Assembly: GCA_963714015.1 (NCBI GenBank)
Contig: OY970223.1
Location: 3,040,001 to 3,104,000 of the forward strand
Length of the DNA: 64,000 nucleotides
Direction: 5' to 3'
Origin: Vulcanimicrobiota bacterium
Lineage (GTDB): Bacteria > Vulcanimicrobiota > Vulcanimicrobiia > Vulcanimicrobiales > Vulcanimicrobiaceae
In this document: piece after piece, positions 5,896 through 48,174 of the stretch
Layout of the letters: every line of letters begins with the position of its first letter
Position numbering within the stretch: position 1 is the stretch's first letter
Notes under the pieces: model-generated
Told to the model about the DNA's origin: nothing
The model's input: the letters and a program-made list of their open reading frames with translations, nothing else
The model's database searches: none
Made by a program: the position numbers and the translations under genes

Positions 5896-6195
5896 TCAGA
5901 CGGCTGCGGGCGCTCCATGCGCCGTGAAGCAGGCGCGGCAATAGACCGGCCGATCTCCACGCGGACGGAACGGAACGGTTGTGGTCGTTCCGCACTCCGC
6001 GCAGACGGCTTCGTAGTTGGGACGCGCACCAGCTGACGCAGGGGCACCAGACCCTTGGCCTTTTCGTAATTGACGGCAATCGCGGCAGCGCTGCGGTTCG
6101 TTTTGAAAACCTTTTTCGGCGTAAAATTGCTGGTCGCGGACGGAGAATACAAAACTATGTCCGCATTCTTTACAAATCAGATTCTTGTCTTCCAA
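5896..6195 (-). CDS. Zinc-ribbon / CxxC-x17-CxxC domain protein
   Basis: CKECG..FVF...QQFYAEKGFQNEPQRCRDC and CAECG...VPFRP.GDRPVYCRAC. Confidence 0.9.
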   Translation of the reverse strand: MEDKNLICKECGHSFVFSVRDQQFYAEKGFQNEPQRCRDCRQLRKGQGSGAPASAGARPNYEAVCAECGTTTTVPFRPRGDRPVYCRACFTAHGAPAAV

Positions 6196-6282
6196 AGGAC
6201 TGGGCCTCCACGAAAGTAGCGAGCCGACACTATGCGACTTGTGTCGGAGAGATTCCTCGCCTGGTTGCGCGGCTTAGCGGAC

Positions 6283-6790
6283 CTATCGTCGAAAGCCGAG
6301 CGGCTCGTGGGGCTGTTCCTTGGGCACCTGCAGCAAGGCGGCGGCTGCAAGGGCCGCTTCGTAACCTTTATCACCTTTTTTGGGGTCGCGCCCGCTCTTC
6401 TGCTTGCAGCAAGTTCTCGGTTGTTAAGACACCGAATCCAATCGGCACCCCAGTCGCGAGCTGCACCGTCATGATGCCGCGCGCGCACTCGCCCGCCACG
6501 TAGTTGAAGTGCGGCGTCTCTCCCCGAATAACGGCCCCAAGCGCGACGACCGCATCCAAGCGATCGTCGGCTTCGATGAGCCGCTTGGCCGCGAGCGGCA
6601 ATTCGAAGCATCCCGGCACGCGGTAAACCGTTACGTCCTCTTCGCGCACATTGCAATCGCGCAAGGCGCGGCGCGCTCCATCTTCGAGCCACTCTGCCAG
6701 TTGGTCGTAGAACTGCGCGACGACGAGAGCAAAGCGTTTCCCGGCAACGTCGTAATGCGCGACAGGCGATCCGTTTTGTTTTTTAGCCAT
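6283..6790 (-). CDS. ribH: 6,7-dimethyl-8-ribityllumazine synthase; apparent 1-nt frameshift near 6388
   Basis: VPGCFELP, ALGAVIRGETPHFNYV, FGVLTTEN. After the shift it continues DPKKGDKGYEAALAA to TAG at 6283. Confidence 0.93.
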
Positions 6791-7172
6791 CAATATTTTC
6801 TATAAGCCGCAGCCGGTTTCCGAACGGATCCAGCAGTTGCATCATTCGGCCCCAAGACTCTTTTTTAATGGCCGGACAACCGGGCGGTTTGGCGCCCAGC
6901 TCCGCCTGCAATGCATCTAGACCAGTCATGTGCACAAGCGAAGTCGAGCCCGGCGTTGCATCCCCGTAATGCTCGGAAAGATGAACGGTTAAGCCGTTCC
7001 GCGAGACTTGCATATACAGCGGTAGCCCTGGTTCAAAGCGATGCTCCCAATCGACCGTGCAGCCCAGATAGTCGATATAGAATTCCTTTGCTTTGTCGAT
7101 ATCGAATATCCGGAAGATCGGAATCGTCTTTGAAAATGTTGCAACGGCGGTATCGGCTGTCGAAGTGTTCAT
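6783..7172 (-). CDS. Glyoxalase/bleomycin-resistance (VOC) protein
   Basis: IPIFRIFD..KAKEFY..YLG..VDWEHRF...LHLSEH.GD.TPG...DPFGNRL. Confidence 0.85.
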   Translation of the reverse strand: MNTSTADTAVATFSKTIPIFRIFDIDKAKEFYIDYLGCTVDWEHRFEPGLPLYMQVSRNGLTVHLSEHYGDATPGSTSLVHMTGLDALQAELGAKPPGCPAIKKESWGRMMQLLDPFGNRLRLIENIDG

Positions 7173-8605
7173 TAGGTGTGATCTCCGTGCATCAGCGGCC
7201 CTTCCACGGGGATACCGTCGAGCAGATGCCCGAGTTTTGCGCGCTTCGTTGCGATATACCGCTTGTTGTGTGCCGTCGGTTCGGTCTGCATCGGAACCCG
7301 TCCGACGATCCGTATCCCATAGCCTTCGAGCCCAAAGATTTTACGCGGGTTATTGGTAAGGACGCGCATCTCCTTAACGCCTAAGTCGGCCAAAATCTGC
7401 GAACCGATTCCGTAATCCCGTTTGTCCACCGGCAGCCCGAGCGCGAGGTTGGCTTCCACCGTATCGGCCCCCTGATCTTGCAGTTGATACGCTCGCAGTT
7501 TGTTGGCCAGGCCGATGCCGCGCCCTTCCTGACGCAAATACAGAAAAATGCCGCGCCCTTCTTTGGCGATGATTTGCATTGCCCCGTCGCGCTGGGCGGC
7601 GCAGTCACAACGCAGCGAATGGAGCGCGTCGCCGGTCAAACATTCGGAGTGAACGCGCACCAGCAAATCTCTGCCGTCGCCGATCTCACCCATGACGAGT
7701 GCGACATGCGTGTTGCGGTCGATGGAATTTTCAAACGCGTAGCCCCGCCACGTTCCGATTTCGGTCGGCAATTGAAACTCCGCGATGCGATGCAGCAGTT
7801 TCTCCGTGCGCCAACGGTATGCAATGAGATCCTTGACCGTAATAAGCCGCACGCCGTGCTTCTTGGCAAAATCGATTAGGCCGTCCAGCCGCTCCATCGT
7901 GCCGTCTTCCGCCATGATCTCGCAAATTACGCCCGCGGGATACAATCCGGCGAGCCGTGCCAGATCGACCGCCGCTTCGGTTTGACCGGCGCGAACCAGC
8001 ACGCCGCCCTCGCGAGCACGCAGCGGAAAGGTGTGACCGGGTCGCAGCAGATCCGACGGACGTGTTGCCGAATCGAGCAGCGCTTGAATCGTCGCCGATC
8101 GATCGTGTGCCGAAATTCCTGTCGTCGTGCGCCCGCGCGCTTCAACCGAAACGGTGAACGCCGTTTCGTGCACGGCGCTGTTTTCGGAAACCATTTGCGG
8201 CAAATGGAGCTCGTCGAGTCGCCGGCCCGTCATCGGAACGCAGATCAAACCGCCCGCGTACTTGCGCATGAAGTTGATAGCTTCGGGCGTGACCATCTGC
8301 GCGGCCATAACGAGGTCGCCTTCGTTTTCGCGATCCTCGTCGTCGAGCACGATGACCATCTTGCCGGCACGAACGTCTTTGATCGCCTCCTCAATCGAGT
8401 CGAAAGGCGATGCCTTTTCCAGCGAATTGGTCAGGTCGGGCAAGACCTGAGTCAGCCGCTGCAAAGAGCGGTAGGACGGCTCACGCTGCCCGGACCGAAG
8501 GTACGAAATCGCAGCCTCCGTTAGCCCGCTGCGCTCAGCCAGGTCCGCGGCGTTAAGGCCTGCGGCTTCCATAGCCGTATTCAATTCCTCAGCAAAGGGA
8601 CTCAC
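7172..8605 (-). CDS. ribBA: XRE-type HTH fused to bifunctional DHBP synthase/GTP cyclohydrolase II
   Basis: Residues ~5-56 form an HTH (LNAADLAERSGLTEAAISYLRSGQREPS). RibB motifs DDEDRENEGDL, TTGISAHDR, RPGH. RibA motifs RVHSECLTGD, RCDC, QEGRGIGL..K, TNNPRK. Confidence 0.95.
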   Translation of the reverse strand: MSPFAEELNTAMEAAGLNAADLAERSGLTEAAISYLRSGQREPSYRSLQRLTQVLPDLTNSLEKASPFDSIEEAIKDVRAGKMVIVLDDEDRENEGDLVMAAQMVTPEAINFMRKYAGGLICVPMTGRRLDELHLPQMVSENSAVHETAFTVSVEARGRTTTGISAHDRSATIQALLDSATRPSDLLRPGHTFPLRAREGGVLVRAGQTEAAVDLARLAGLYPAGVICEIMAEDGTMERLDGLIDFAKKHGVRLITVKDLIAYRWRTEKLLHRIAEFQLPTEIGTWRGYAFENSIDRNTHVALVMGEIGDGRDLLVRVHSECLTGDALHSLRCDCAAQRDGAMQIIAKEGRGIFLYLRQEGRGIGLANKLRAYQLQDQGADTVEANLALGLPVDKRDYGIGSQILADLGVKEMRVLTNNPRKIFGLEGYGIRIVGRVPMQTEPTAHNKRYIATKRAKLGHLLDGIPVEGPLMHGDHT

Positions 8606-8611
8606 GGGCCC

Positions 8612-8641
8612 AGCTTACGCCGCGAACTTAACAACTGTCAA
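8612..8641 (-). promoter_or_regulatory. Probable leaderless promoter of ribBA
   Basis: Minus strand TTGACA (8641-8636), 18 bp, TAAGCT (8617-8612), 6 nt, GTG start at 8605; no Shine-Dalgarno. Confidence 0.6.
8631..8638 (+). repeat. Junction repeat 1, ACAACTGT (probable target-site duplication)
   Basis: tta-ACAACTGT-caaggtaacatac; the same 8-mer occurs at 10708, 15243 and 17853. Confidence 0.9.
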
Positions 8642-8690
8642 GGTAACATACTTGGCTCACCAGGGGCCTGGTGTCTGGTAGGATAGAGAG

Positions 8691-8981
8691 ATGGCCCGCG
8701 CTCGCTTCCACGGTTTGCTTGCGGAGATGGAAGACCGACTCGGCGGAAACTACAATTCCGCGCTCCTCGCAGCCATTCTCGCGGTTGCCCCAATGTTCGT
8801 GGTGGCGATGATTCATTCTGCGCTCGCTTGGCGCTGTCTTGAGTCGTTTTGGGTCGCACTAGTTCTAATTTTGCTAGCACGGGTCTTCCGAGTACAAGTT
8901 CGCGTAGCCCTATTGGGTGGTCTTCTCTGGCTTTGCGGTACGCTGGGCAATTTTTGTGCTACCTCCGGTGTCATCGGGTGA
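8691..8981 (+). CDS. Small hydrophobic cargo protein
   Basis: 96 aa with about three TM-like stretches, inside unit A. Confidence 0.45.
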   Translation: MARARFHGLLAEMEDRLGGNYNSALLAAILAVAPMFVVAMIHSALAWRCLESFWVALVLILLARVFRVQVRVALLGGLLWLCGTLGNFCATSGVIG

Positions 8982-9685
8982 AGTGAGTGCCCCTATTCCC
9001 TATCCAACCCCAATGCTGCAAACATGGGACGGAGTTTACTCTGGTTGGGCAACAGAGCGCGGAGCCAAGTTGCCATACTGGGCGGTAAATCTGTGTCTAG
9101 CCAATTTTGGGAATGAAGATGTCAAGGTAGTGACATACGAGACTTCTAAATTAGATTGGAATTATCGCGACGATCCCACGAAAGTGCGGCCGGTAGTGGA
9201 CAAGATGAGGGCGTCACTCGCTGTTCAAGAGGAAAGGGCGGAACACGCCTGGCCCGAGATTTATCATCCCGATGACCCACGATTACTATCCTGTTCGCAA
9301 AGGTTGGGATATTTCAGAAGACATCCGAGACCATTTTACTGGCACGCACTATATTCAGGTACATTCCGATCACGTAGTAGGGCGCGACGAGCAAATGCAA
9401 ATAATGGCTCAGTACAGAATCCTCTACTACGATGTGGATTTTGTAGAAACGAATTCGCGTGGTATGACCACCTGGAACGCTTGCGGAATCGTGGAGTGGC
9501 AAGGCAGTACAACCCCGTGTCCGGAGGCGGGGGTTAAAAAAGTGAACGACGATATTGACGGCGACGAAGCCATGAGGCGGTTTGAAGAACTCGGGACTAA
9601 ATTGTTCCAAATCAAGAAAGACCACGTTGAGGAAATCACTGAGGGGGAACCTGATGACTACTCGAGCCGGAGCCCGGATGAGTAG
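8982..9685 (+). CDS. Hypothetical cargo protein, probably one gene split by a frameshift near 9270
   Basis: Overlapping ORFs 8917..9537 and 9272..9685, each protein-like in complementary halves; visibly lower GC. Confidence 0.4.
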
Positions 9686-10638
9686 TCCGCAGAGCCGCGT
9701 TCTCGTTCTTCAATTCGCGATAGGTTACGCGCCGTCCGTCCGTATTCTTCAGCACGGCCACGAACCGCTCCGCGTCGTTCCCCTCGCGGGCGTTGAAGCG
9801 GAATACTTGCTCGTCAAGGTAGCGGTCTCAGATGGAACGGACGCGGGCAAATGTAGGTCCCTTTAATGGTCCGCTTCAGGCAGCTCCAGAAGTTCTCGAT
9901 ATTGTTCGTATGCACGCTTTCCGTCAACGTACCGAACCGAGTGGTCAACGAACTTATGCAGGTAGCGAATAGTCCAGCATCCGGTAGGAGCGCAGCGCAT
10001 CGGTGAACACTTGGAACCCGGTTCGACGTTCTGATAAATCTTCGGAAGCAGTACCGCGGCGCGATGGTTCGGAACGACCATAGCCTTCACGCGGCTTTTG
10101 CCTTTTTCTTCGGCGCGTTGCACCATGCCGAACACCGTCGTCTTTCCGGTGCCGGTCCGTGTTTGAGTTTGCGGAAGCCGCTCTTGGAAAAGTAGTTCGT
10201 GCGTACCTTACCGCCGACGAATGTTTCGTCCGCTTCAACTGTACCGGAGAACGCCGCGCCAACGCCGTCTTTCATGGATTCGCGGATGCGATGGAACATG
10301 AACCACGCCGTCTTTTGCGTGACACCCAGGGCGCGGTCCAGTTCACACGACGAGGTTCCGTTCTTCGTGTTTGCCAGGAGCCAAATTGCCGGAAGCCACT
10401 TGGTAAACGAAATCGGACTGTCCTCAAAAATCGTCCCAACCTTGACCGAGAACTGCCGTTTGCACTCTTTGCAGCGCCACATTTTGCGAGTCTTGAGGAA
10501 TTGGACGGACGCCGATCCGCAACCCATGCGCGGGCACGCGATGCCGTTCGGCCAGCGCAATTTAACCGCGTATTCGAACGCCCGCTCGGGGTCCGAGAAG
10601 AAGGTGACTGCCTCGATAAGCGTAGTCGGCGTGTCCAT
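9636..10638 (-). CDS. IS1595-family transposase with several frameshifts
   Basis: N-terminal zinc ribbon (RWPNG..CP..GC...WRCKEC), GTIFEDS, LGVTQKTAWFM.HRIR, VEADET, VFTD, HTNNIENFWS.LKR, RYLDE..FRFN. Confidence 0.92.
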
Positions 10639-10707
10639 GCTTTAACGGTATACTCGAGGGTGTTCCACCAGTGTGGCACTGTGAGGTGAGCCAAGTATAT
10701 TAGCTTG

Positions 10708-10715
10708 ACAACTGT
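10708..10715 (+). repeat. Junction repeat 2, ACAACTGT
   Basis: gtatattagcttg-ACAACTGT-caagatgatatacc. Confidence 0.9.
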
Positions 10716-10780
10716 CAAGATGATATACCTATTGCGGCTTTGCCCATTTCCGGCGAGTTGCACAAAGCGCTAAAGCGTGG

Positions 10781-11185
10781 CTATTGGTGCAGTAGCACGA
10801 TGGCAATCACGGCGTAAAGGCTCAGAACGACGCCACCTAGCGGTATCGCGAGTTTAAGACGAGGATTCGCCGGAACACTGGTCACCCGTGGAAAGGCATA
10901 CGCGAAGTAAGCCCACAGCGCAAGGCTAACGAGTGCTAAAGCAAGGCGCTCAGTCCTTCCAAGCACGGTTAGCCTGTGCACTTTCGGTAATCGATCTGAA
11001 GCCCCCAGATCGCCGATCTCGCATTGCCTGCGCCCAACCTCGTCTTGCAAGCGCAGAGAACGCTCGATCGCGGCCGCCAGGTTATCCTCGGCCTCGGTCG
11101 GCGTCGGCCCAAAGGCCACAATCTCGCGACCTGCGCCCTGCCCCCTGGCGTGGTAGCCGCCCGCAACCTGCAGTAGAGTAGCCAT
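10781..11185 (-). CDS. Hypothetical protein; N-terminus weakly HicB-like, hydrophobic C-terminus
   Basis: GGYHARG...IVAFGPTPTEAEDNLAAAI resembles the HicB G.T.EEA..N...AI pattern. Confidence 0.35.
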   Translation of the reverse strand: MATLLQVAGGYHARGQGAGREIVAFGPTPTEAEDNLAAAIERSLRLQDEVGRRQCEIGDLGASDRLPKVHRLTVLGRTERLALALVSLALWAYFAYAFPRVTSVPANPRLKLAIPLGGVVLSLYAVIAIVLLHQ

Positions 11186-11234
11186 GGTCCAAATTATCCC
11201 ACGCCGTAGCGTTACGTGGCAAATAACTTAATGC

Positions 11235-11350
11235 GGCGGGAAGGCGACCACGCGGAGCGGTTCTATACTGTGCTGAAGAACACGGACGGCCATCGCGTTA
11301 TGTATCGCACCTTGAAGGCGGAAAACCCGAACCTGCGTGTTATGCATCCT
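11235..11350 (+). pseudogene. Remnant of an IS1595 transposase C-terminus, inverted relative to unit A
   Basis: REGDHAERFYTVLKNTDGHRVMYRTLKAENPNLRVMHP versus unit A REGNDAERFVAVLKNTDGRRVTYRELKNENAALRTTHP. Confidence 0.85.
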
Positions 11351-11479
11351 CGGATATCTCGCCCGAATCTCGCCCGCGTCGTCCTCGATAATTTCCCGGT
11401 TATCGTCGTTCTTGCGAACGATTTTGCCGAGCAGGGTTTTCGAAGTTCTCCATAGCCTCGTCGCCGTTTACGTCGTCAT

Positions 11480-12314
11480 TCATAGCAAGTCCAACGCTTC
11501 ATCTGCCAGTTTGCCACCAAGGATTGTCGCCCACGCATCTAGCGCTTTCGCCATGGCTTGTACCGTTTTTGACGTTAATATTTGCCCCGCAATTATTTCG
11601 TGTGTTAGGTCCGTACTGCTTAAGCCATATCTTGACATCATATCGGTAACAATTCTTACGACCTTGGGCCTCACCTTGTCAAATTCGGTATTATCCACGG
11701 TAGTGCTCTCGAGCCATTCCTCAATTATTTCGCGCCCCGTCAGCCCTTTACGCTGCGATTTATGCAGCGTCATGTTATTCACGAACGATTCTAACATTGC
11801 AGAGACGCGCTTTATGCGTGTGTAGTCCGAAGCGAGGGGTGCAATGCGCGACCATTTCTCCGCGCTAATCTGCAAGTCGTTAACCCGCCCCACTAATTTG
11901 TCGTTTTCTAGCGATGCCTCTACCCAGCCATCCGATAACGCATCAGCCTCGGCCTTTAGACCCTCAGTTTTCGTACGCTCCTGTCGGACGATGCTCAATG
12001 GTGTCCTGCAATTTACTTTGGACACCGAGTGACTAAACGAATCAGTAGCCTGCGATGCGGTCGCCGACAAGGACAGGTCCTTTACTTGCGCGTCGTGCCA
12101 CCACAGCAATAGGCCGACCATAAGAAAAAGTGGAGATGAAATCTTGGACTTGCGCCACAAAGTGTCCCAGTTCGGTGTGCGCGTTATAATTCAGCGATGC
12201 CTGGACGGCGTTCTCGTGGTCGATTGCGTCCCATATTCTCCAGGCCCAACCCAGACCAGATATGACGAGCGTTGCAATCGTCGGCCTAGACGGACGCCAC
12301 ACTTTAGAGAACAT
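11480..12314 (-). CDS. Hypothetical membrane-anchored cargo protein (frameshifted)
   Basis: ORFs 12042..12314 and 11480..12160 overlap; TM segments followed by a helical region; lower GC. Confidence 0.4.
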
Positions 12315-12409
12315 CCAGATCGTTTGCGCCGTGAGCGCGACTGATCATTTTGTGACCCTCGATGAGACCAAGGCTGGACTGAAAAAAGCGCCCTCCTTAC
12401 CCTATTAGG

Positions 12410-12497
12410 GCATTGGTGCCTCAGGTGGCTTTGCACATCAAAGGGCGGCTGCACATAAAATACGCTGCTTGCACATAAAACCGAGCCGCTGCAATTA
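12410..12497 (+). repeat. Internal transposon-end-like sequence with periodic GCACATAAAA repeats
   Basis: gtgCCTcAGGtGGCTTTGCACA matches the unit B/C ends. GCACAT repeats at 12433, 12451 and 12471; homologous to 17870-17928. Confidence 0.7.
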
Positions 12498-12661
12498 GGA
12501 ACAGTTTATTTCGTCCGTACGCTTGCAAAGCATGGTATATTTGCGCCATGTTGCCGCGACGGTGGTCGCGGGCAGGGAGTAAAGGGCTCCCCACCCGCAT
12601 CCTCCATCGGGGACGGTCGGAAGCTCCAGGGGTTCCGATCTCGCGCTCCAGGAGGAAAACT

Positions 12662-12808
12662 CTACTCCGGTTTTGGCGCACGACGAGGTGTGTTCCAATA
12701 CGGACTTTTGCACTTCGGGCAAACCATCGGGTCCTGCGACTTGTCCCGAGGCAGCCATTCGTGCCCGCATCGGTCGCACCGATAGCCGGACAGTTTCACC
12801 TTCGCCAT
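12662..12808 (-). CDS. 48-aa zinc-ribbon protein (not in the ORF track)
   Basis: Hand translation MAKVKLSGYRCDRCGHEWLPRDKSQDPMVCPKCKSPYWNTPRRAPKPE*; two CxxC motifs; TTGACG-18-TATACT 6 nt before the ATG. Confidence 0.8.
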   Translation of the reverse strand: MAKVKLSGYRCDRCGHEWLPRDKSQDPMVCPKCKSPYWNTPRRAPKPE

Positions 12809-12814
12809 TCCCGT

Positions 12815-12890
12815 AGTATATACCCACTAGTCTCATACCGTCAATATACCCCCTGGTAGGTTGACTCTGCGCTATCCCTTGTGGTATATT
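12815..12890. promoter_or_regulatory. Divergent promoter pair (zinc-ribbon gene and transposase)
   Basis: Minus strand TTGACG (12844-12839), 18 bp, TATACT (12820-12815). Plus strand TTGACT (12861-12866), 18 bp, TATATT (12885-12890) with a TGn extension. Confidence 0.6.
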
Positions 12891-12920
12891 CTCTTTAGGA
12901 ATATACGAAGGGGTACGAAG

Positions 12921-14141
12921 ATGGAAGCACGGGAACAGCGCGGGCTCGAAATCGCAGCCACCAAGAAACTCGAAAAGTCCGGCCAGAAGTGGCTTGTCCC
13001 ATCCTCCACCGGATCGGGCACGTACGTTGTCGATCCCACCGTCTACGGGCCGGCGACCTGCACTTGTCCCGACTACGAGCTGCACCAAGAGCCGTGCAAA
13101 CACGTCTACGCGGTCGAGTTTACGATCCGACGCGAAACGACGGCCAAGGACGGTACCGTGACGACCGAAACGATCACGTACCGCCAGGAATGGGCCGCGT
13201 ACAATGCGGCACAGGGCAATGAGAAGGTCCGCGTTGCGGAGTTGCTTCGCGAACTGTGCGGCGCAATCGACAACCCACTCCAAAAGCGCGGTCGTCCGCG
13301 TCTGCCGCTCTCCGATCGCGATCTTCTGCGCCGTGATGAAGGTTTACGGCGGAATGTCCGCCCGCCGCTCGGCTTTGCGACCTGAACGACTTTGCCGCTC
13401 GCGGCTTCATCGACAAAGCGCCGCACTTCAATTCCGTTCTCAACGCCCTCGAAAATCCCGATGTAACGGCCATCCTCAAGAACATGATTGAGGAAAGCGC
13501 CGCTCCGCTCGTGACGCTGGAAACGGACTTTGCGGCCGATTCCTCCGGCTTCACGCCCACGACCTATGCCCGGTGGTTCGACGCGAAGTACGGGCGCGAA
13601 ATGACCAAGCACCATTGGCTCAAGGCGCATATCACCGTCGGAACCCGCACGAACATCGTTACGGCGGTCGAAGTCACGGACTACAACGTCCACGATTGCC
13701 CCGTACTGCCCGACCTGCTCAACACGACCGCCAAGCGGTTTACGATGGAGCGCGTTTCGGCCGATAAAGGCTACCTGTCCGATGCGAACGTCCGCGCTAT
13801 CCACTCGCACGGCGCGGTCGCCTTCATCCCGCCGAAAGTCCAACAGCCGTTTCGGCCCCATGCCCGACGCAAGCCGCAAGCGTTCCGACGTATGGCACAA
13901 AATGTTCCACTACTACGCTTTCAAGCGCGACGAGTTTCTGCGCCATTACCATCGGCGGAGCAACGTCGAAACGACATTCCACATGATCAAATCCAAGTTC
14001 GGCAGCCGTATCCGCTCGAAAACGCCTATCGCGCAGACGAACGAAGTTCTCGCGAAGGTCCTGTGCCACAACCTGTGCGTACTCGTTCAGTCCGCGTATG
14101 AACTCGGGATCGAATCGACGTTCTGGAAGCAAACGGCGTGA
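12921..14141 (+). CDS. SWIM zinc finger + DDE (IS4/IS5-like) transposase; about 3 frameshifts
   Basis: SWIM motif CTCPD...PCKHVYAV; RGRPRLP; DFAADSSGF; ADKGY; YHRRSNVETTFHMIK.KFG (Y-2-R-3-E-6-K). Confidence 0.9.
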
Positions 14142-14169
14142 CAGGTCTGAGGTCTTTGGAGGTCCCGAC

Positions 14170-15021
14170 ATGATCCCTATAATCCTGGTGCTAGCCATGG
14201 GTAGTACACCAACCGCGGCTTACGATTTGCCAAGGATCGAGCACCGGTACGCTATAGCCGAAGATAATCAGCGCGATCCCCAAACCCGCAACACCGCCGC
14301 CCAACATTCGGCGGCGAGGGAGCAGATCAACACCAACCCACAGGACTGCTCCTCCGCCGACAATCAAAACACAGCACAGTGCGAGGACGCTAAGAATAAC
14401 CAAAGAATCGCTGTCGCAAACGAGCACATGGTTACTCTCACTATTGTTATCGCTGCTGTTGGCGTTATGCAAACGCTTGCTCTCGTTCTTACGTTGGTAG
14501 CCACCCGAAAGGCGGCGAACGCTACGGCTAAGAGCGTTGACCTTTCCGAACGGTCGCTGAAGATCACTGAGCGTGCACACCTTCAGGTGAGCCAGATTGA
14601 GGTGCGGAGCGGCTTGACGAGTGGGAACATCCCCCGGATCGTAGTGTCGATTGCGAACCGAGGAAGGACACCAGGAACTATAGTAAGCAGTGTTTTTAAA
14701 TTTCAAATCTTCGACACAATTCCAGAATCGCCAACCTTTGATGGCGAGACTCCCAATCAGGTTTTGGTTGGTCCTGGGAACACCGAGACGTCCGATATTA
14801 TGACGCAACACGCCGTCACAACGGACGAGATCGAAGCGATAAAGGCTGCGAAAAAGCAGTTGGTCGTCTGGGGCAGAGTGTTCTATCTCGACGTGTTCGG
14901 GGACCGCCACGAAATGCGGTTTGGGTGCGCGATGAAAATGCACGATCATACCCCGGGCACTCAGGACTATAGGGTGACGTTCAAACAGTTGGTTGGTGAA
15001 GATTACAATCGGGCCGACTAA
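14170..15021 (+). CDS. Hypothetical secreted/membrane cargo protein
   Basis: Signal-like N-terminus, a TM segment (IVIAAVGVMQTLALVLTLVA), then a soluble domain (I.N.G.TPG, G.V.Y.DVFG..H). Confidence 0.65.
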   Translation: MIPIILVLAMGSTPTAAYDLPRIEHRYAIAEDNQRDPQTRNTAAQHSAAREQINTNPQDCSSADNQNTAQCEDAKNNQRIAVANEHMVTLTIVIAAVGVMQTLALVLTLVATRKAANATAKSVDLSERSLKITERAHLQVSQIEVRSGLTSGNIPRIVVSIANRGRTPGTIVSSVFKFQIFDTIPESPTFDGETPNQVLVGPGNTETSDIMTQHAVTTDEIEAIKAAKKQLVVWGRVFYLDVFGDRHEMRFGCAMKMHDHTPGTQDYRVTFKQLVGEDYNRAD

Positions 15022-15116
15022 CGCGAGAGCAGGTATTTTTCCGGTATGCTGAACTTGCGAACCGACCGCTCTTGAGCCATGCCCTGCGGTAACGGGTTGA
15101 CGCTCACGGGCTACGG

Positions 15117-15149
15117 AGGGGATCGGGGAATCCGGTCCCCTTTTCGTTT
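15117..15149 (+). terminator. Intrinsic terminator
   Basis: AGGGGATCGG-ggaat-CCGGTCCCCT followed by TTTCGTTT. Confidence 0.7.
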
Positions 15150-15242
15150 GCTGAGAGGCCGCACATAAAATCGGCAGGCTGCACAAAAAACACGCCCCCA
15201 GGAGCAATAAATGTGCAAAGCCGCCTCAGGTATATCATCTTG

Positions 15243-15250
15243 ACAACTGT
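15243..15250 (+). repeat. Junction repeat 3, ACAACTGT
   Basis: ggtatatcatcttg-ACAACTGT-caaggtaccgtacc. Confidence 0.9.
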
Positions 15251-15310
15251 CAAGGTACCGTACCTAAGGCGGCTTTGCACAAAAAGGCACTTTTGGGGCT
15301 GCTTTTATAT

Positions 15311-15567
15311 GTTGAGCAGGTCGGGGAGTACGGGGCAATCGTTGACGTTGTAGTCCGTGACTTCGACCGCCGTAACGATGTTGGTACGGGTTCCGACGTT
15401 AACATGCGCCTTGAGCCAATGGTGTTTGGTCATTTCGCGCCCGTACTTGGCATCGAACCAGCGGGCATACGTCGTGGGCGTGAAGCCGGAAGAATCGGCA
15501 GCGAAGTCTGTTTCCAGGGTCGCGAGCGGAGCGGCGCTTTCCTCAATCATTCTCTTGAGGATGGCCG
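15311..15567 (-). pseudogene. Internal fragment of a SWIM-DDE transposase, inverted relative to unit B
   Basis: AILKRMIEESAAPLATLETDFAADSSGFTPTTYARWFDAKYGREMTKHHWLKAH...DCPVLPDLLN, nearly identical to the protein encoded at ~13468-13723. Confidence 0.9.
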
Positions 15568-15591
15568 AAGTGCGACCAGCGCTGCAGCCAG

Positions 15592-17268
15592 TTACGCGCT
15601 TGGCAGTGTCTGCAATGGTGAAGTCAGCGTAAGCAGCGCGTATGCGCTGCCGGTGCGATACGTGAGAAGTGCAAGCGTTTCGGTCTCTTCCGGCAAGTAA
15701 TGCGTGCGATCGCGCTTGGGACCACAGATGACAAAGCCGATAAGTTCCGCACGCGCGGTCATCGGCAGCAGCAGTGATCCACGCAATGGATGTGCGGGCT
15801 CGTCGCATTCGAACGGTTCGTGCCAACGCCGCAAACGCAGCACTGCAAAATCGTGAGACGGCAGAATGGAAGGTGTGGGGGCGCTTGGCGTCGCGAGCGC
15901 ATACGCCGACCCGTCGGCCGTGTAGATCGCGACGAAGTCGCTCTCGAGGCGTTGACGCAGCGCCTCGTATGTCTGCAACAACAAGTATTTCGGGTCTGAA
16001 ATAAGGTCGGTCTCCTGCGCGAAGCGCCGTAACGCTTGCATCGCCGCCGTTTGCGAACGGAAGATGATTCGGTTGAGGAATCCTTCGATACGGCGATGAG
16101 CATGCGTGAGGACGACGCCGATGAATACCGCGAGCAGCAACTCCGCGGCGAGAGCGAAACGTGACTCTTCGAGCCATCTGCCGAAGCCCCAATCCACCAG
16201 AGCGAGCAGGGCGATCGTGATTGACGTGATGGTACCGTACAACAGTGCGCGGCTGACCACGAATCGGATGTCGAACAAGCGGTGGCGCAGGATCGTGTAG
16301 GCCAAGGCAATCGGCGCGAGCAGCATCCACGCTTGTGCAAGGTTGATATACGAAACTTCCGCGTAAATGCCGAACATGGGCGCGAGAATATTGTCGATGA
16401 CGATCGAGGGTAAAAACGCGACGGCGAAGGACAGCACAACCCAGCGCAGCCGATTACGGCGCGCTTCATCAGCCTGAACGTATCTGGCGATCAAAATCAC
16501 GATGGCGACGACGTAGATGCTGTTGAGCACGGCGCCGTACACCGTCCAATACGCGGTCGGAGCTCGCGCTCCGGAGACCACCAGCACGACCATCGGAATC
16601 AGCAAGGCAAGCCATACCGCGGGCACAAAAAACGCGATGAGCGCACGTTCGAGTAGCGCTCCGGCGCCGCGCGGCGTTGAATCGGGAAACCGCAGCGCGA
16701 ACGAGACAAAGCCAGCTGCCGATGCCGGAAGCGCAATCGACACGATGAGAGTGACGAGATACTGGGCCGCAGGGTATTCGAGAATCAGTGTGCCGACGAG
16801 GCAAAAGTTGTAGAGAAACGCGTAAAAGGCCCACGTGACGGGGCTCGGCCGGAAGAGCACGAGCGCGGCGGCGAGCAAAATGGCCGCCCACAGTGATACT
16901 ACCGCGATATAATCCGTGACGTTGTCGATGGCCGTTCGACCGAACGGATGCGAACGTAATGTCACGAGCCTGCCCGAACTGAGCGGAAGAGTTATAACGG
17001 CTCCGTCGGGTGCACCGGCATCGTAGCCCAGCGTTAGTGAGGCGCGACCGGTGGGGGATAGGCGACGCATGTCGATGACGTCACCGGCCCGCAAGCCTGC
17101 TCTCGATGCTTGCGCATCCACCGAGGTAATGTAACCGTTCTGCCCCGCGCCAAAGCCGTATGTCGAATACGGATGCCAGGGCAGAAGCAGATCTCCGCCG
17201 TTGGCGAGCAGCGAAGCGGCGGTAAGAACGACAATGAAGACAGTCCGGATGACTGCCCGCGTGTCCAT
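15592..17268 (-). CDS. Multi-TM protein with PDZ-like N-terminal region and C-terminal GAF-like domain
   Basis: ASRAGLRAGDVID, about 9 TM segments, LAYTILRHRLFDI, LLPMTARAELIGFVICG...EE...L; paralogous to 46088-47855. Confidence 0.75.
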   Translation of the reverse strand: MDTRAVIRTVFIVVLTAASLLANGGDLLLPWHPYSTYGFGAGQNGYITSVDAQASRAGLRAGDVIDMRRLSPTGRASLTLGYDAGAPDGAVITLPLSSGRLVTLRSHPFGRTAIDNVTDYIAVVSLWAAILLAAALVLFRPSPVTWAFYAFLYNFCLVGTLILEYPAAQYLVTLIVSIALPASAAGFVSFALRFPDSTPRGAGALLERALIAFFVPAVWLALLIPMVVLVVSGARAPTAYWTVYGAVLNSIYVVAIVILIARYVQADEARRNRLRWVVLSFAVAFLPSIVIDNILAPMFGIYAEVSYINLAQAWMLLAPIALAYTILRHRLFDIRFVVSRALLYGTITSITIALLALVDWGFGRWLEESRFALAAELLLAVFIGVVLTHAHRRIEGFLNRIIFRSQTAAMQALRRFAQETDLISDPKYLLLQTYEALRQRLESDFVAIYTADGSAYALATPSAPTPSILPSHDFAVLRLRRWHEPFECDEPAHPLRGSLLLPMTARAELIGFVICGPKRDRTHYLPEETETLALLTYRTGSAYALLTLTSPLQTLPSA

Positions 17269-17339
17269 CCTCGCAGAACTTCGTGCTCCGACATACCTTC
17301 CCCGCTGCGCAGGAATCGCGCTTTCCGCAACGTCGCCGG

Positions 17340-17790
17340 CGCGAGAGTAGAGCGATACGCACGGGGCGATCGTCGGCGATATTCCCAACACGCCGGGCGT
17401 GCACGGCATCGCACTTGCACCCGAACTCGGCAAGGGCTTTACGTCGAACGGTTCCGACGGCGCGGTAACGGTGTTCGATTTGAATTCGCTCAAACCCATG
17501 ACGACGATTCAAACGGGTGCCAAGGGGCCGGACGGCATCGTGTACGACCCCGCCAATAAGCGCGTGCTGACGTTCAACGGCGAGAGCAACGACGCGACCG
17601 CCAGCGACGCGCAAAACGACCGCGTCGTGGCGACGATTCCGCTTGGCGGACGACCGGAGTTTCCTGTCGCGGACGGCAAAGGCATGGTGTACGACAACAT
17701 CGAGAGCACGAGCGAAATCGTCGCGATTGACACGTCGAGCGCGGCAATCGTCGATCGCCGGAGTTTGGGAAGTTGCCAAAGCCTGTCGGG
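17340..17790 (+). pseudogene. Fragment of a YncE/YVTN-like beta-propeller gene
   Basis: GDIPNTPGVHGIALAPELGKGFTSNG...GPDGIVYDPANKRV...GRPEFPVADGKG; lacks the N- and C-terminal parts. Confidence 0.75.
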
Positions 17791-17852
17791 CAAACCCATT
17801 CGAGGCCTCGCCTTGGCAGCCTCGGTCAAGGTGAGTCAGGTATATCACCCCG

Positions 17853-17860
17853 ACAACTGT
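17853..17860 (+). repeat. Junction repeat 4, ACAACTGT
   Basis: ggtatatcaccccg-ACAACTGT-caaagtggccgtacc. Confidence 0.85.
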
Positions 17861-17930
17861 CAAAGTGGCCGTACCTGAGGGGCTTGCACATGAATCGACG
17901 CTTGCAATAAAATCGAGCCGCCGCAATGAA
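17861..17930 (+). mobile_element. Array unit D: degenerate B-type left end; right boundary not found
   Basis: CAAAGTGGCCGTACCTGAGGGGCTTGCACA, then cttgcaataaaatcgagccgccgcaat, matching cttgcacataaaaccgagccgctgcaat at 12468-12495. Confidence 0.65.
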
Positions 17931-17976
17931 GGCGAGAATGCCACCCGTGTGGCGCCGTTCCGAGTAGTATTTTCCC

Positions 17977-18255
17977 ATGAACCTAGAAACGGGAGCGGTC
18001 CTTTTAGCGCAGATGCAAGCCGACGGCGGAAGATATCGCAATAAGGCGGTTGTCAATGCGGTGCGCGCTGCCGTTGCCATCGTCGTCTGGTTACTGCACG
18101 CGGGCGCCTTCAGCAGCATTGCCTTTTTCATATTCGTAATCTGCGGGTACCTTACGCTGTCAAACTTGGAGCAGTGGAACATCACCAGGCGGCAACAAGA
18201 GTCTGTTGCTCTAGTTATCCTCGGCACAAGTATTTGCGTTTGCGGCGCTCGATGA
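17977..18255 (+). CDS. Small hypothetical membrane protein
   Basis: 92 aa, 2-3 hydrophobic segments. Confidence 0.35.
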   Translation: MNLETGAVLLAQMQADGGRYRNKAVVNAVRAAVAIVVWLLHAGAFSSIAFFIFVICGYLTLSNLEQWNITRRQQESVALVILGTSICVCGAR

Positions 18256-18519
18256 ATATTGCAGCAGCTTGTTTCGGGTGCGCAAAGGATCGGCAAACCC
18301 ATCCCTCTTCCGGACCCGTGGATTGAACGTGCCAATTCCCCGATGAGAAAGCGAGCGAACGGCTTGCTCGCCTGGTCGTTCATCCTTTCACTGGCAATGG
18401 TAGTGTTCCGCCGTCAGCTTCCTAAACTCGGCCCGTTGCCTAGAGTATTTTGTGTCGCTTCCTGCCCTGGCGGGAAGCATGACAACCTGTATTCGACGGT
18501 TCAAGGCCACGGAGACGAA

Positions 18520-19620
18520 GTGTATAAAGCAAAAGCATACGCCGCGGAAACGGCATCATCCGCGCTCACATTGACGACGATACCGCGGCGAGATCTCACG
18601 CAAAACGACGTTCAGATCGAGATATTGTTCTGCGGCATCTGCCATTCGGATTTGCACACAGTGCGCGACGAGTGGGGCGGAACGGTTTACCCGGTCGTTC
18701 CGGGTCATGAAATCGTCGGACGCGTCACAAATGTCGGCTCGGCGGTCACTGCTTTCAAGCCAGGCGATCTTGTGGGCGTCGGATGCCTAGTCGACTCCGA
18801 CGGCACGTGCGAACAGTGCCGCGCCGGCTACGAGAATAATTGCCCGAACCGGGTGCTTACTTACAATTCGTCCGATACGTACCTTGGGGATGTTACCTAC
18901 GGCGGCTACTCCGAGAGCATCATCGCCGACGAACGCTTCGTTCTGCGCATCCCGGAAAATCTTGATATAGCGGGCGCGGCACCGCTGCTATGCGCGGGGA
19001 TCACGACATACTCGCCGATGCGCCATTGGGGCGTCAAGGAAGGTCAGAAAGTCGGCGTTGTCGGGCTGGGCGGTCTCGGTCACATGGGCGTCAAGTTCGC
19101 ACGCGCGTTCGGCGCGCACGTCGTTGTCTTCACCACCTCGCCCAACAAGAAAGACGACGCGCTGCGCCTCGGGGCGAACGACGTGGTGGTTTCGCGAAAT
19201 GCAGACGAGATGCAAGCCCATGCGAACACTTTTGACTTCATCTTGGACACCGTTTCAGCGCAGCACAACATCGACGCATATCTGGAGCTGCTTGCACCGA
19301 ACGGCACCTTGGTCTTGGTCGGCGCTCCGCCGGAGCCGTTGAGCGTGTCTGCATTCAGCCTCATTGCAGGGCGCCGCAGTCTTGCAGGCTCCAATATCGG
19401 TGGAATCCGCGAAACGCAGGAAATGCTTGACTTTTGCGGACGGCACAATATCACGTCGGACGTCGAGGTCATCTCAATTCAAGACGTCAACGACGCTTAC
19501 GAGCGGATGGCCAAATCCGATGTGAAGTACCGCTTCTCGATCGATATGGCGACGCTGAAATCACAGAGTGCTGAAGACGACTCAACAAAGAAGCGCCTAT
19601 CCGAAGCGCATTCTCGGTAG
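18520..19620 (+). CDS. NAD(P)-dependent Zn alcohol dehydrogenase (cinnamyl-ADH/YahK type)
   Basis: CGICHSD, PGHEIVG, APLLCAGITTYSP, GLGGLGHMG, DVKYRF; GGAG RBS before the GTG at 18520. Confidence 0.93.
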   Translation: MYKAKAYAAETASSALTLTTIPRRDLTQNDVQIEILFCGICHSDLHTVRDEWGGTVYPVVPGHEIVGRVTNVGSAVTAFKPGDLVGVGCLVDSDGTCEQCRAGYENNCPNRVLTYNSSDTYLGDVTYGGYSESIIADERFVLRIPENLDIAGAAPLLCAGITTYSPMRHWGVKEGQKVGVVGLGGLGHMGVKFARAFGAHVVVFTTSPNKKDDALRLGANDVVVSRNADEMQAHANTFDFILDTVSAQHNIDAYLELLAPNGTLVLVGAPPEPLSVSAFSLIAGRRSLAGSNIGGIRETQEMLDFCGRHNITSDVEVISIQDVNDAYERMAKSDVKYRFSIDMATLKSQSAEDDSTKKRLSEAHSR

Positions 19621-20040
19621 CAGCCCGTGACGGACACTCTCGTCGCGGCAGGTTGTGGTAGAGCCCGCCTGCCCCTCGCTTGATGAGGGCGTTAGCACGC
19701 CTGGCAGTAGAGTGACAAGGCGCGTTTAGTGTTCTGCGATGCGGGTACTCGACCTTCAGAAAAATGGAGCCCCGCCCCCGTGATAAACAGCCTCCTCCTT
19801 TACGCGATCGGATCGCTCATCTCGCGACCGATTTAGATTCACTTTCCCGCGCGATACACGAAGAGCTGGACTGGCGCGAAAAGCTCGAGCCTGAACCGGC
19901 GGACGACAACGACAACGGCTAGTACGCCAACGTTCCCGCGTCCAGAACGATCCGATGGTCCCGACTGCGTTGATTACTGCGGCTCGATAAGGTGTTTCTT
20001 TATCGTAGTACGGCCGGTTTGAATGGGTACACGCAGCAGC

Positions 20041-20661: not shown

Positions 20662-20670
20662 CGCGGACGG

Positions 20671-22709: not shown

Positions 22710-23152
22710 TCTCGCAGTGCGCTGCGCATCGGCGGCGGGAGGGGCCGGCTTTTGTGCGATCGTCTATCCATGCATGCGACCACTAAGTGAAACGCCGCTC
22801 CGGCGGCGTTGGTGCGTTCGTTGTGCACGACGGTCAGCCATTTGATCGACGAAGCTCCAACGTGCCGGATGTGCGTGCGCAGCGTCAGCCAGTCACCCAT
22901 CAGCGCGGGATTGTGATAGTCGGCCTCCACATGCACGCGCGGCAGCCAAATGTCGTACTCTTCGAAGACCGTGTTGTATGGAAAGCCCAGCTCGCCGAAA
23001 AAATCCATTTCTGCGCGCTCGACGGCGCGCTGATATGCCGCGAAGTACATGATCCCGGCGATGTCGATGTCGGCCCACTGCACCATCACGCGCGTCTCGA
23101 AGATCCGCGCACCCTCCGGTGTCGTGTCTTTAAACTTGGGCATGGACCGCAT
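22697..23152 (-). CDS. Acyl-CoA thioesterase (4HBT/hotdog fold)
   Basis: VQWADIDIAGIMYF..Y...E.A. Confidence 0.85.
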   Translation of the reverse strand: MRSMPKFKDTTPEGARIFETRVMVQWADIDIAGIMYFAAYQRAVERAEMDFFGELGFPYNTVFEEYDIWLPRVHVEADYHNPALMGDWLTLRTHIRHVGASSIKWLTVVHNERTNAAGAAFHLVVACMDRRSHKSRPLPPPMRSALRECLA

Positions 23153-23720
23153 ACCGCGCGATTGGGTCGACTTCCAAATTCACTGAATCCCCCGGCTCCC
23201 GCCGCCCCAGCGTAGTGCGCTCGAGTGTTTCGGGAATCAAGGCGATCTCGAACCAAGTGTCGGCCACATTCGCTACCGTGACGCTGACGCCGTCAACGCT
23301 GATGAACGCCTTCTCACACACGTACCGCCGCAACGCCGCCGGTAAAGCGACGCGCATGCGTTCGCCTTGTCCTTCGGGCGTGCGCGAAAGCATTTGTCCG
23401 GTAGCATCGACATGGCCGTACACGAAGTGGCCCCCCATGCGGTCGCCGAGCCTGAGCGAATACTCGACATTGACCACGTCGCCTTCGCGCAGCGAGCCCA
23501 GATTCGAACGCGCCAGCGTTTCGGGAACGACGTCGAAGTCCACGATGTTGTGATCGACGCGCGTTGCCGTCAAGCAGACGCCGTTGACTGCAATCGAATC
23601 CTTCGGTTCAACTTCTTCCTCCGATGCATTCTCGCAGCGCAAGGTCAACGTAAGGCCGCCGCCATGCACCGGCGTAATGCGTTGAACCTTTCCCGTATAA
23701 GCGATGAGCCCGCTAAACAT
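23130..23720 (-). CDS. ribE: Riboflavin synthase alpha chain
   Basis: MFSGL start, DSIAVNGVCLT, GGHFVYGHVD, SVDGVSVT, IPETL..T, VNLEVD. Confidence 0.95.
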   Translation of the reverse strand: MFSGLIAYTGKVQRITPVHGGGLTLTLRCENASEEEVEPKDSIAVNGVCLTATRVDHNIVDFDVVPETLARSNLGSLREGDVVNVEYSLRLGDRMGGHFVYGHVDATGQMLSRTPEGQGERMRVALPAALRRYVCEKAFISVDGVSVTVANVADTWFEIALIPETLERTTLGRREPGDSVNLEVDPIARYAVHAQV

Positions 23721-24810
23721 CCGTCTCCACAATCCCCGAGATATGCAAATCTGCTCCCAACCGTTCGACGCGGTCGAATCGAAGGCCCGGCGAGCCGTTG
23801 AGATCGCCCGCAGCGATGACGGGCACCGCCGAAGCGGTGCGCAGCAGCCGCGGTGCAATCAGCCAGTGTAAGCGATCGACGAGTCCGTAAGTCAGCAGGT
23901 GTCCGGCCATCGTCGGGCCGCCCTCGCAGAGCACGCTGGTTATCTCTCGCGCACGCAATTCGTGAAAAGCTTGCGGTATATCGAGCCGAACGTCGCTGTC
24001 CTTGCCGACGTAGATGACGTCCGCCACCGTTTCGACTTCGAGGAATTTCGGTTTGGCGCCGGCTGGAGCGAGGACGATCGTGCGCGCGTACCCTTCAGCC
24101 GGTTCAAAGACTACGCTGCGCGGATCGACCGAATCGGTCTCGCAAGCGACGATGCGAACGTACTCGCGCAATCGATGATGCGCGGGGCGCACTGTAAGCT
24201 GCGGATTATCGATCCGCACCGTTCCGGCGCCCACGATGACGGCGTCGTGAGCGATGCGCAGATCGCGCACGAACGTGCGCGCTTCGCCTCCCGTCAACCA
24301 CTCTTGCCGTCCGCTCTGAGGTGCGACGTACCCGTCCAGCGACATCGCCATCTTCAGCGAAACGTACGGGCGATCGGATCGTATCGCGCGTGCGAACGGC
24401 TCGATCAATGCACGCGATCGTTCGTCATCCTTCACCGCCACGTCGATGGCCCGTTGGCGCAGGAAGGCGATTCCGCCGCCCGCGGTCCGCGGGTTCGGAT
24501 CGATTGCACCAACCACCACGCGCGTGATCCCGGCGGCGGCAACGGCGTTCGAACAAGGCGGCGTGCGGCCCTGATGATTGCATGGCTCCAGCGAAACATA
24601 AAGCGTTGCGCCGTGAGCGGCGTCGCCGGCTTGCCGGACGGCGAGAATCTCGGCGTGCGGCTCTCCCGCCCGATGGTGGTAGCCTTCGCCTGCGATAGCG
24701 TCGCCGGCGACCACGACCGCGCCGACCGGCGGATTCGGCGAGGTGTTTCCGATTCCGCGTTCGGCCAGTTCGCACGCCCGTTCAAGGAAAATCCGGTCTA
24801 GCGCGTCCAT
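23713..24810 (-). CDS. ribD: Riboflavin deaminase/reductase
   Basis: TSPNPPVGAV, HAE, LEPCNHQGRTPPC, KMAMSLDG, DNPQLTVR, EGGP. Confidence 0.96.
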   Translation of the reverse strand: MDALDRIFLERACELAERGIGNTSPNPPVGAVVVAGDAIAGEGYHHRAGEPHAEILAVRQAGDAAHGATLYVSLEPCNHQGRTPPCSNAVAAAGITRVVVGAIDPNPRTAGGGIAFLRQRAIDVAVKDDERSRALIEPFARAIRSDRPYVSLKMAMSLDGYVAPQSGRQEWLTGGEARTFVRDLRIAHDAVIVGAGTVRIDNPQLTVRPAHHRLREYVRIVACETDSVDPRSVVFEPAEGYARTIVLAPAGAKPKFLEVETVADVIYVGKDSDVRLDIPQAFHELRAREITSVLCEGGPTMAGHLLTYGLVDRLHWLIAPRLLRTASAVPVIAAGDLNGSPGLRFDRVERLGADLHISGIVETDV

Positions 24811-24935
24811 CGATCTACCTCCAAATATTGCGCCTAGTCCGGTTTCCGGCCTTGTCCGGTGCGCGGTGCCGGTATTCCGACATTTATCGGGCTCGAGGCA
24901 AGCGACGCGTTCTGCCGTGTCGAACGCGCCGAGCC

Positions 24936-48024: not shown

Positions 48025-48095
48025 TCCCGGGTGATGAAATGGTATCATGACAGGCTCTGAACCTGTTCTTCCTCGTTCGAGTCGAGGCCCGGGAG
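48025..48095 (+). tRNA. tRNA-Gln(CTG)
   Basis: Acceptor TCCCGGG/CCCGGGA, anticodon arm ACAGG-ctCTGaa-CCTGT, T-arm CCTCG-TTCGAGT-CGAGG; no encoded CCA. Confidence 0.93.
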
Positions 48096-48101
48096 CGTAG
48101 C

Positions 48102-48174
48102 GGCCCTATCGTCTAGAGGCCTAGGACGCCGCCCTCTCACGGCGGTAACGCGGGTTCGAATCCCGCTGGGGCTA
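48102..48174 (+). tRNA. tRNA-Glu(CTC)
   Basis: Anticodon arm CCGCC-ctCTCac-GGCGG, T-arm GCGGG-TTCGAAT-CCCGC. Confidence 0.95.

Follow-up and report, generated by a model that had tools for sequence, protein, structure and literature searches.

The window analyzed here is a 64,000-nucleotide (nt) stretch of the genome of a Vulcanimicrobiota bacterium (contig OY970223.1, positions 3,040,001 to 3,104,000, GenBank assembly GCA_963714015.1). Our subject is a gene on its minus strand that joins a helix-turn-helix (HTH) domain to the riboflavin synthesis enzyme RibBA, together with a palindrome in the promoter of that gene. The open reading frame (ORF), 7172..8605, opens with GTG and encodes 477 amino acids (aa). 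Pfam placed HTH_3 (PF01381) over residues 11-55 (29.2 bits against a gathering cut-off of 23, E 9.9e-7), DHBP_synthase (PF00926) over residues 72-263 (E 1.6e-88, profile positions 1-191 of 191) and GTP_cyclohydro2 (PF00925) over residues 273-438 (E 2.2e-70, profile positions 2-165 of 165). A preliminary description of this DNA had read the gene as an XRE-type HTH in frame with an intact RibB-RibA; with HTH_3 above its cut-off and both enzyme profiles matched over their full length, this architecture was confirmed. The features of the gene and its promoter are the following.

7172..8605, minus strand: HTH-ribBA coding sequence, 477 aa, GTG start (ORF list and Pfam)
8441..8605, minus strand: XRE/Cro-type HTH, residues 1-55 (Pfam HTH_3, AlphaFold2 (AF2) model and invariant residues)
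8408..8440, minus strand: variable linker, residues 56-66 (pN/pS 0.83, the ratio of nonsynonymous to synonymous change; solved chains align past the linker)
7817..8392, minus strand: DHBP synthase (RibB) domain (Pfam; single genome match)
7292..7789, minus strand: GTP cyclohydrolase II (RibA) domain (Pfam; single genome match)
8628..8641, given without strand: candidate operator, TTGACAGTTGTTAA on the gene strand, family motif TTnACA-N2-TGTnAA (conservation and co-occurrence)
8636..8641, minus strand: -35 hexamer TTGACA, perfect, which is also the left half-site of the palindrome
8612..8617, minus strand: -10-like hexamer TAAGCT, 18 nt past the -35 and ending 6 nt before the GTG

The fused gene gave the sole DHBP_synthase match and the sole GTP_cyclohydro2 match in the 3.56 Mb single-contig genome. 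Because each enzyme family is represented by this single match, the gene content indicates that HTH-RibBA must be the working RibB/RibA enzyme of the cell. The DDEDRENEGD-type motifs and the cysteines C322, C333 and C335, which we take to have catalytic roles, were invariant in 49 sequences.

We then considered the HTH as a part of the protein in its own right. A homologue search with residues 1-70 only (threshold E<=1e-3, 250 candidates) returned 131 proteins; where these bore names, they were those of Eremiobacterota or Vulcanimicrobiota metagenome-assembled genomes. The domain-architecture survey that the preliminary description had proposed bore out the fusion as well: PF01381 (precomputed) and PF00926 occurred together in 118 of the 120 homologues listed, nearly all of them 456-489 aa long. 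Their N-termini aligned gap-free, with SGLTE[AS]AIS[YL]LRSG[QR]REPSY almost fixed; in the 49 sequences the HTH residues G27, T29, E30, S34, L36, R37, R41, P43 and S44 were invariant, and the recognition-helix residues were unchanged throughout. Across 41 loci, pN/pS was 0.40 for the HTH, 0.83 for the linker and 0.21-0.22 for the enzyme domains (RibB 0.21), values that are rough since pS is saturated near 0.6. These values indicate that the HTH is under purifying selection and that the linker is not.

The structural data pointed to the same boundary. In the AF2 model, built on 49 sequences, helices at 3-15, 19-26, 30-38, 45-54 and 56-65 formed a compact bundle of about five, with residues 1-54 a confident helical bundle and a block-mean predicted local distance difference test score of 83-95 across residues 1-40. 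All 17 solved RibB/RibBA chains aligned from query residue 59-69 onward (63-69 in 16 of them), and because the alignments begin at residue 59 or later, none of these solved relatives has the HTH. The HTH alone matched solved proteins weakly (434 repressor, E 0.056-0.2; SinR, E 0.32-0.9), and such matches to XRE proteins appear too weak for subfamily placement.

The candidate operator was assessed in 40 orthologous promoters, taken at about one per genus (about 40 genera). The sequence c-TTGACA-nt-TGT-n-AA-g stood just 5′ of the start codon in all 40 loci; a search for motifs upstream of the orthologues had been another step proposed in the preliminary description. The TT.ACA and TGT.AA positions were kept in 36-40 of the 40. 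In the right half the third base varied freely (T in 19, A in 11, C in 9 and G in 1), and its mirror position in the left half was G in 38 of 40. Because the right third base is free and the left one is fixed as G, as a -35 requires, the dyad seems to be constrained beyond the needs of a promoter; this half-site asymmetry thus offers a sequence criterion that separates operator constraint from promoter constraint.

The motif also followed the HTH. We scored the best motif site within 150 nt upstream of each ribBA. Among 49 HTH-bearing loci, this site was exact in 38, carried a single mismatch in 10 and had two mismatches in 1. Among 92 HTH-less loci (losses within the bacterium's own family, the families we label f3, f11 and f20, and other phyla), it had 3-6 mismatches, and none had two or fewer. 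Base composition predicts 0.7 copies of the exact motif TTNACANNTGTNAA in the 3.56 Mb genome, and three were present. In 14 of 20 other genomes of the family there was exactly one exact site, which was the ribBA one where coordinates were compared, and a reversed-pattern control gave 0-1 sites per genome. One genome (G097) had a one-mismatch site, and the HTH-less G145 had no site. Four genomes (G045, G148, G199 and G233) had extra exact sites, for which no common gene context was found; the second site in G148 lies about 2.1 kb upstream of ribBA. The proposal of an operator at 8628-8641 over the -35 was therefore strengthened by motif scores of two mismatches or fewer in 49/49 HTH-bearing and 0/92 HTH-less loci and by near-uniqueness per genome. 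Additionally, a clade whose HTH reads TEGAIS, RR[TS]PS and QAL tends toward ACG/CGT half-sites and a shorter spacing, which is only a hint, from one lineage, that altered HTH residues and altered half-sites have co-evolved.

To place the fusion in the phylum, the first 110 aa were searched against 301 genomes. The phylum tallies take in ten genomes flagged as unpublished, and our locus-level statements rest on the others. The bacterium's own family (f1) gave matches in 198 of 206 genomes, a second family of the same order (f2) in 3/3 and a third family of the same class (f3) in 22/22, the last at E near 1e-15 to 1e-18; the best 150 matches, all in f1, begin at query residue 1-4. A search with full-length RibBA covered 32 chosen genomes. 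In this set the HTH was present in 3/3 f2 genomes and in the f1 genomes G011, G039 and G053, and it was not found in 10/10 f3, 2/2 f11 and 3/3 f20 genomes. Three f1 genomes (G077, G145 and G162) had a RibBA without the HTH. G018, a further candidate for an HTH-less case, was rejected, as the contig stops only 42 bp past the match. The HTH-RibBA fusion is thus, on these searches, found across one order of the phylum. The preliminary description had held that an absence of the HTH from close relatives would count against its proposal; the 150 best f1 matches include the HTH, and three f1 genomes that lost it lost the palindrome along with it.

A quick tree, based on 172 DHBP-synthase columns and with many forks unresolved, nested G145 and G162 among the HTH-bearing rows of a starred clade (96) and paired G077, on a long branch, with an HTH-bearing row at a weaker support of 89. 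In G145 and G162 the palindrome is missing, and ribBA is preceded by an ordinary Shine-Dalgarno leader. In G077 the TTGACA is retained, followed by a spacer of 17 nt, TAGCCT and a further 6 nt to an ATG, and the right half-site has decayed (TTGACAccgtTTGC). Therefore, a -35 can persist without TGTnAA, and TGTnAA disappears along with the HTH. As for the origin of the fusion, f3 shows the layout of a classical operon, in which ribBA directly follows ribE and is preceded by a Shine-Dalgarno sequence, and a RibE match lay upstream of ribBA in 8 of the 40 HTH-bearing loci fetched. In one locus (L020) about 67 nt separate ribE from ribBA, and the -35 apparently shares bases with the ribE stop. From the f3 layout and the eight loci with RibE upstream, the fusion looks like an insertion, in which promoter and HTH would have been placed between ribE and ribBA. 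Two loci on contigs labelled Verrucomicrobiia (L108) and Candidatus Acidiferrales (L113) belong to the same HTH-RibBA family, and both their palindrome and their upstream motifs agree with those at the Eremiobacterota loci; their labels could reflect mis-binning, mislabelling or gene transfer.

The promoter has a constant geometry in most orthologues. TAnnnT stood 16-18 nt past TTGACA in 32 of 41 loci, ending exactly 6 nt before the start codon in 25 of these 32 and 7-9 nt before it in the other 7, and the distance from TTGACA to the start was 35 or 36 nt in 30 of the 41. The start codon was GTG in 21 loci and ATG in 20. From this arrangement of -35, -10 and start, the ribBA mRNA is predicted to be leaderless, as the preliminary description had suggested, with the standard geometry in 32/41 orthologous loci. 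The palindrome would span about -36 to -23, a position that fits occlusion of RNA polymerase.

Downstream of ribBA, and 15 kb away from it, lie the following genes.

6783..7172, minus strand: Glyoxalase_7 gene between ribBA and ribH, whose ATG overlaps the ribBA stop (TAATG)
6371..6793, minus strand: ribH (lumazine synthase), downstream operon member
5896..6195, minus strand: treble-clef zinc-finger gene (zf_Tbcl and zf_Tbcl_2), past ribH
23130..24810, minus strand: ribD-ribE, the remaining pathway genes, given for context only, 15 kb off and without the palindrome upstream

In all 40 orthologous loci fetched, ribH lay 3′ of ribBA, mostly within about 50 nt. Among the 41 loci, the Glyoxalase_7 gene was seen only in the window and in one locus of the same genus (L001), and the zf_Tbcl and zf_Tbcl_2 zinc-finger gene was present downstream of ribH in 25. 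The three exact sites of the genome are all in the window, and its 10 one-mismatch sites are scattered, none of them near ribD, ribE or ribF. With ribH downstream and no site at ribD-ribE or ribF, the predicted target is the ribBA-ribH operon alone, a predicted regulon that would hold both entry steps and the lumazine step.

The search for FMN (flavin mononucleotide) riboswitches was negative at each scale. RF00050 was not found in the window at gathering score, in positions 6000-26000 at E<=1 with permissive filters, or in the whole genome; the only Rfam matches at gathering score in the window were two adjacent tRNA genes (48025-48174). It was also found in 0/80 genomes of the phylum (34 f1, 3 f2, 20 f3 and 23 others), in a search with stricter filters that scored at most 35 candidates per genome; 7 of 14 named control genomes were positive. 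The absence of an FMN riboswitch, suggested in the preliminary description for this gene, therefore extends in our scans from the window to the genome and the 80 phylum genomes. It is, at the resolution of these scans, phylum-wide in the sample, with or without the HTH. As to the leader of ribD, in which the preliminary description had seen no riboswitch length, ribD starts with ATG at 24810, preceded by GGAGG, and about 122 bp separate it from a divergent signal-peptide ORF (start near 24933), with nothing at E<=1 in 6000-26000. Because no riboswitch was found in the HTH-less relatives either, the fusion does not simply stand in for it one to one.

Several further sequence elements were seen around the palindrome. 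The other two exact copies in the genome, at 10705-10718 and 15240-15253, are perfect palindromes (TTGACAACTGTCAA) with similar flanks (AGGTATATCATC-like, then GGCTTTGCNCA), and they lie in a transposase-rich region (IS1595 Zn-ribbon/DDE at 9863-10638; DDE_Tnp_1 at 13484-14141 and 15305-16330). The HTH-RibBA protein might bind them as well. In comparison with G148 (L023/L065), window positions 9697-10704 at least, between the palindromes at 8628 and 10705, are inverted, and positions 8655-9696 are without a counterpart. G148 has an intact IS1595-like ORF of 275 aa that is divergent from ribBA and about 98 nt from its start; this ORF shares 76% DNA identity with window positions 9697-10719, where it is split into ORFs of 183 aa and 90 aa. 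The palindrome copies at 8628 and 10705 look like the boundaries of the inversion. Separately, two or three TGCCCATAAAA / TTAATGGGCAAAGCC-like repeats occur 60-130 nt 5′ of ribBA in L001, L007, L015, L019, L038, L040 and L108, that is, in several genera and in mixed orientations, with TGTGCA in the genus of the window. They also occur at window positions 12427-12480 and 15160-15285, and a second factor may bind there. Another, distinct palindrome, ACTTGAAAC-N6-GTTTCAAGT, stands 5′ of ribBA before a divergent ORF of ~200 aa in L002, L004, L009, L013, L022, L036 and L113; it probably serves as the operator for a regulator belonging to that neighbouring gene.

Overall, our computations established the fusion and the selection on it, the joint occurrence and joint loss of palindrome and HTH, a near-unique site and a conserved promoter geometry. 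We consider it likely, on sequence evidence, that HTH-RibBA is an autorepressing trigger enzyme for ribBA-ribH, for which we infer binding, repression, dimerization and a ligand effect. The RibB and RibA domains would perform both entry reactions of riboflavin synthesis. Solved DHBP synthases are dimers, and binding as a dimer to a palindrome of roughly 14 bp is typical of the XRE family; the N-terminal HTH, presumably paired through the protein dimer, would bind the 14-bp TTnACA-N2-TGTnAA. The bound dimer, lying over the -35 and the beginning of the spacer, would block RNA polymerase, and the amount of ribBA-ribH transcript would be set in this way. A ligand of the enzyme domains, or a flavin, would modulate the binding. 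A fuller proposal, which we advance only tentatively, is a protein feedback switch: occupancy of the RibB and RibA sites (by ribulose 5-phosphate, GTP or products) or a flavin might alter the presentation of the two HTH domains of the dimer, and the protein might thereby sense flux, set its own synthesis and replace the FMN riboswitch across this Eremiobacterota order. Of the rib autoregulation first proposed for this locus, the computable parts held; the predicted regulon is ribBA-ribH only, as ribD-ribE is without a site.

A number of observations weigh against autorepression by HTH-RibBA. The -35 makes up half of the palindrome, whose conservation is therefore in part that of the promoter, and the counts overstate independence because the compared genomes are relatives. 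A simple sigma-70 scanner called no promoter at ribBA, because TAAGCT matches TATAAT at 3 of 6 positions. Nine of the 41 loci, mostly from one clade, have another layout without a TAnnnT in the expected position: five have the site at 28-33 nt from the start and one at 64 nt, and in several a second palindrome precedes it by 20-30 bp. Two further perfect palindromes stand beside transposase-like genes (10705 and 15240), and the AF2 model is silent on the arrangement of domains or of a dimer. In the genome itself no site was found near ribD-ribE or ribF, even at one mismatch, so that the proposed control would not extend to the whole pathway. Moreover, the FMN riboswitch was found in 0/20 of the HTH-less f3 relatives; with neither HTH nor riboswitch, that lineage manages without either device.

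We weighed four other explanations against these data. The palindrome could be the operator of a separate regulator, with the fused HTH serving protein contacts, localization or other DNA. XRE-type proteins are common, and the two further palindromes in the window adjoin transposase-like genes rather than rib genes, which would suit such a regulator. However, the palindrome is gone with the HTH in three genomes (G145 and G162 in the starred clade, G077 less securely placed), a search of the genome with the first 110 aa gave no further match at E<=1e-3, and a single-copy site in 14/20 genomes fits an autoregulator; we therefore hold a separate regulator to be unlikely. Somewhat less probable still is that the conserved sequence is a strong promoter only and the HTH a tolerated remnant of an accidental fusion. 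The left half-site is indeed a perfect -35, and conservation is expected of a leaderless gene that depends wholly on its promoter. However, the TGT and AA in the spacer, which is not a standard sigma-70 element, are kept in 36-40 of 40 promoters and mirror the left half; G077 retains the -35, the -10 and their spacing, yet lost TGTnAA along with the HTH; and purifying selection acts on the HTH and not on the linker.

HTH-RibBA might instead bind the palindrome and activate, or act both ways depending on ligand. Regulators of the MerR type act at sites between the -35 and the -10, in promoters with spacers of 19-20 nt. The site at ribBA is likewise placed between the two hexamers, and the weak -10 (3/6 to TATAAT) is typical of promoters that need help. 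However, the spacer here is 16-18 nt, the -35 is already a perfect consensus, and G077 has the same promoter layout without the HTH, so that we rate activation as improbable, on a par with a separate regulator. Finally, the HTH might be untranslated, with the true start near residue 60-66 and the upstream frame open by chance or belonging to a small gene. The GTG start and a TTG at codon 55 leave some room for this, but the conserved and selected HTH makes a downstream start unlikely: the frame and its residues are conserved across an order, and synonymous change is saturated while the residues stay fixed. Furthermore, an ATG occupies the same position as the GTG in 20/41 orthologues, at 35-36 nt from the -35 in 30/41, and the Shine-Dalgarno sequence found before MPLATIEEAI in HTH-less relatives was not seen in the linker of the window gene. 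We regard this as the least probable of the four, with very little chance of being correct. Autorepression of ribBA-ribH by HTH-RibBA thus remains our preferred reading.

The bacterial synthesis of riboflavin is a textbook case of riboswitch control. The FMN riboswitch (RF00050) does the same job as that proposed here, acting at ribB or the rib operon to hold riboflavin synthesis under feedback, but it is an RNA device located in a leader, whereas ribBA here is predicted to be leaderless. Standard RibBA enzymes share the catalytic part of our protein but are without the HTH; Mycobacterium tuberculosis RibA2 (PDB 4i14), for example, matched over query residues 68-465 at E 3.9e-139, with a Foldseek E of 1.1e-36. 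The 434 repressor and SinR have the same domain type as our HTH, but they are stand-alone regulators. Effectors are known for the trigger enzymes BirA, NadR and PutA, and that of BirA is a reaction intermediate.

The closest known parallel comes from Archaea: RbkR joins a riboflavin kinase to a DNA-binding domain and, in the portion of the report available to us, regulates rib genes including its own operon (PMC5397151). Like HTH-RibBA, it unites a riboflavin-pathway enzyme with a DNA-binding domain in a lineage without FMN riboswitches (PMC5397151). As described there, it differs in being a CTP (cytidine triphosphate)-dependent kinase that makes the end product FMN, in its PF12802 domain, in its archaeal origin and in its many rib and transporter targets (PMC5397151). 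HTH-RibBA, in contrast, has the entry enzyme RibBA, an XRE-type HTH_3, a bacterial host and a single predicted operon. The same portion of that report lists BirA, NadR and PutA as bacterial trigger enzymes (PMC5397151). They resemble HTH-RibBA in having an N-terminal DNA-binding domain, a pathway enzyme and an operator in their own or a pathway promoter, as far as the accessible text describes them, but none is placed in riboflavin synthesis there (PMC5397151). In Wolbachia, XRE-family factors tied to type IV secretion genes are reported, in the accessible part of the source, to regulate ribA (PMC3518464). This link to a riboflavin gene is alike, but those factors are separate, unfused proteins (PMC3518464). 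In a 2026 review of riboflavin regulation, a term search gave no occurrence of helix-turn-helix, XRE or RbkR (PMC13028884). A description of an HTH-RibBA fusion was not found in the literature searched, which largely excluded subscription journals, and within that literature RbkR was the only enzyme-fused regulator of the riboflavin pathway.

Other HTH_3-RibB(A) fusions with an unrelated HTH were found outside this family, namely P0234/P0271 (482 aa; one source: Dehalococcoidia) and the fragment P0148. The search of 50%-identity representatives for such fusions returned mostly fragments, and a genome scan with P0271 did not find the loci of these fusions. Three N-terminal extensions were rejected as fusions: in L134 the frame merely runs open, and L087 and L145, in which no HTH was seen, look like the open frame of L134. 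The unrelated HTH-RibB(A) fusions suggest a recurrent invention.

If autorepression holds true, HTH-RibBA would be the first bacterial rib enzyme to regulate its own gene. The system lends itself to a clean test, as it comprises one protein, mostly one 14-bp site per genome, a predicted leaderless promoter and natural variants that lost both HTH and site, and it would be, if true, a compact sensor-plus-promoter module that could be tried in a heterologous host. It also bears on how a phylum in which no FMN riboswitch has been found so far controls its synthesis of vitamin B2.

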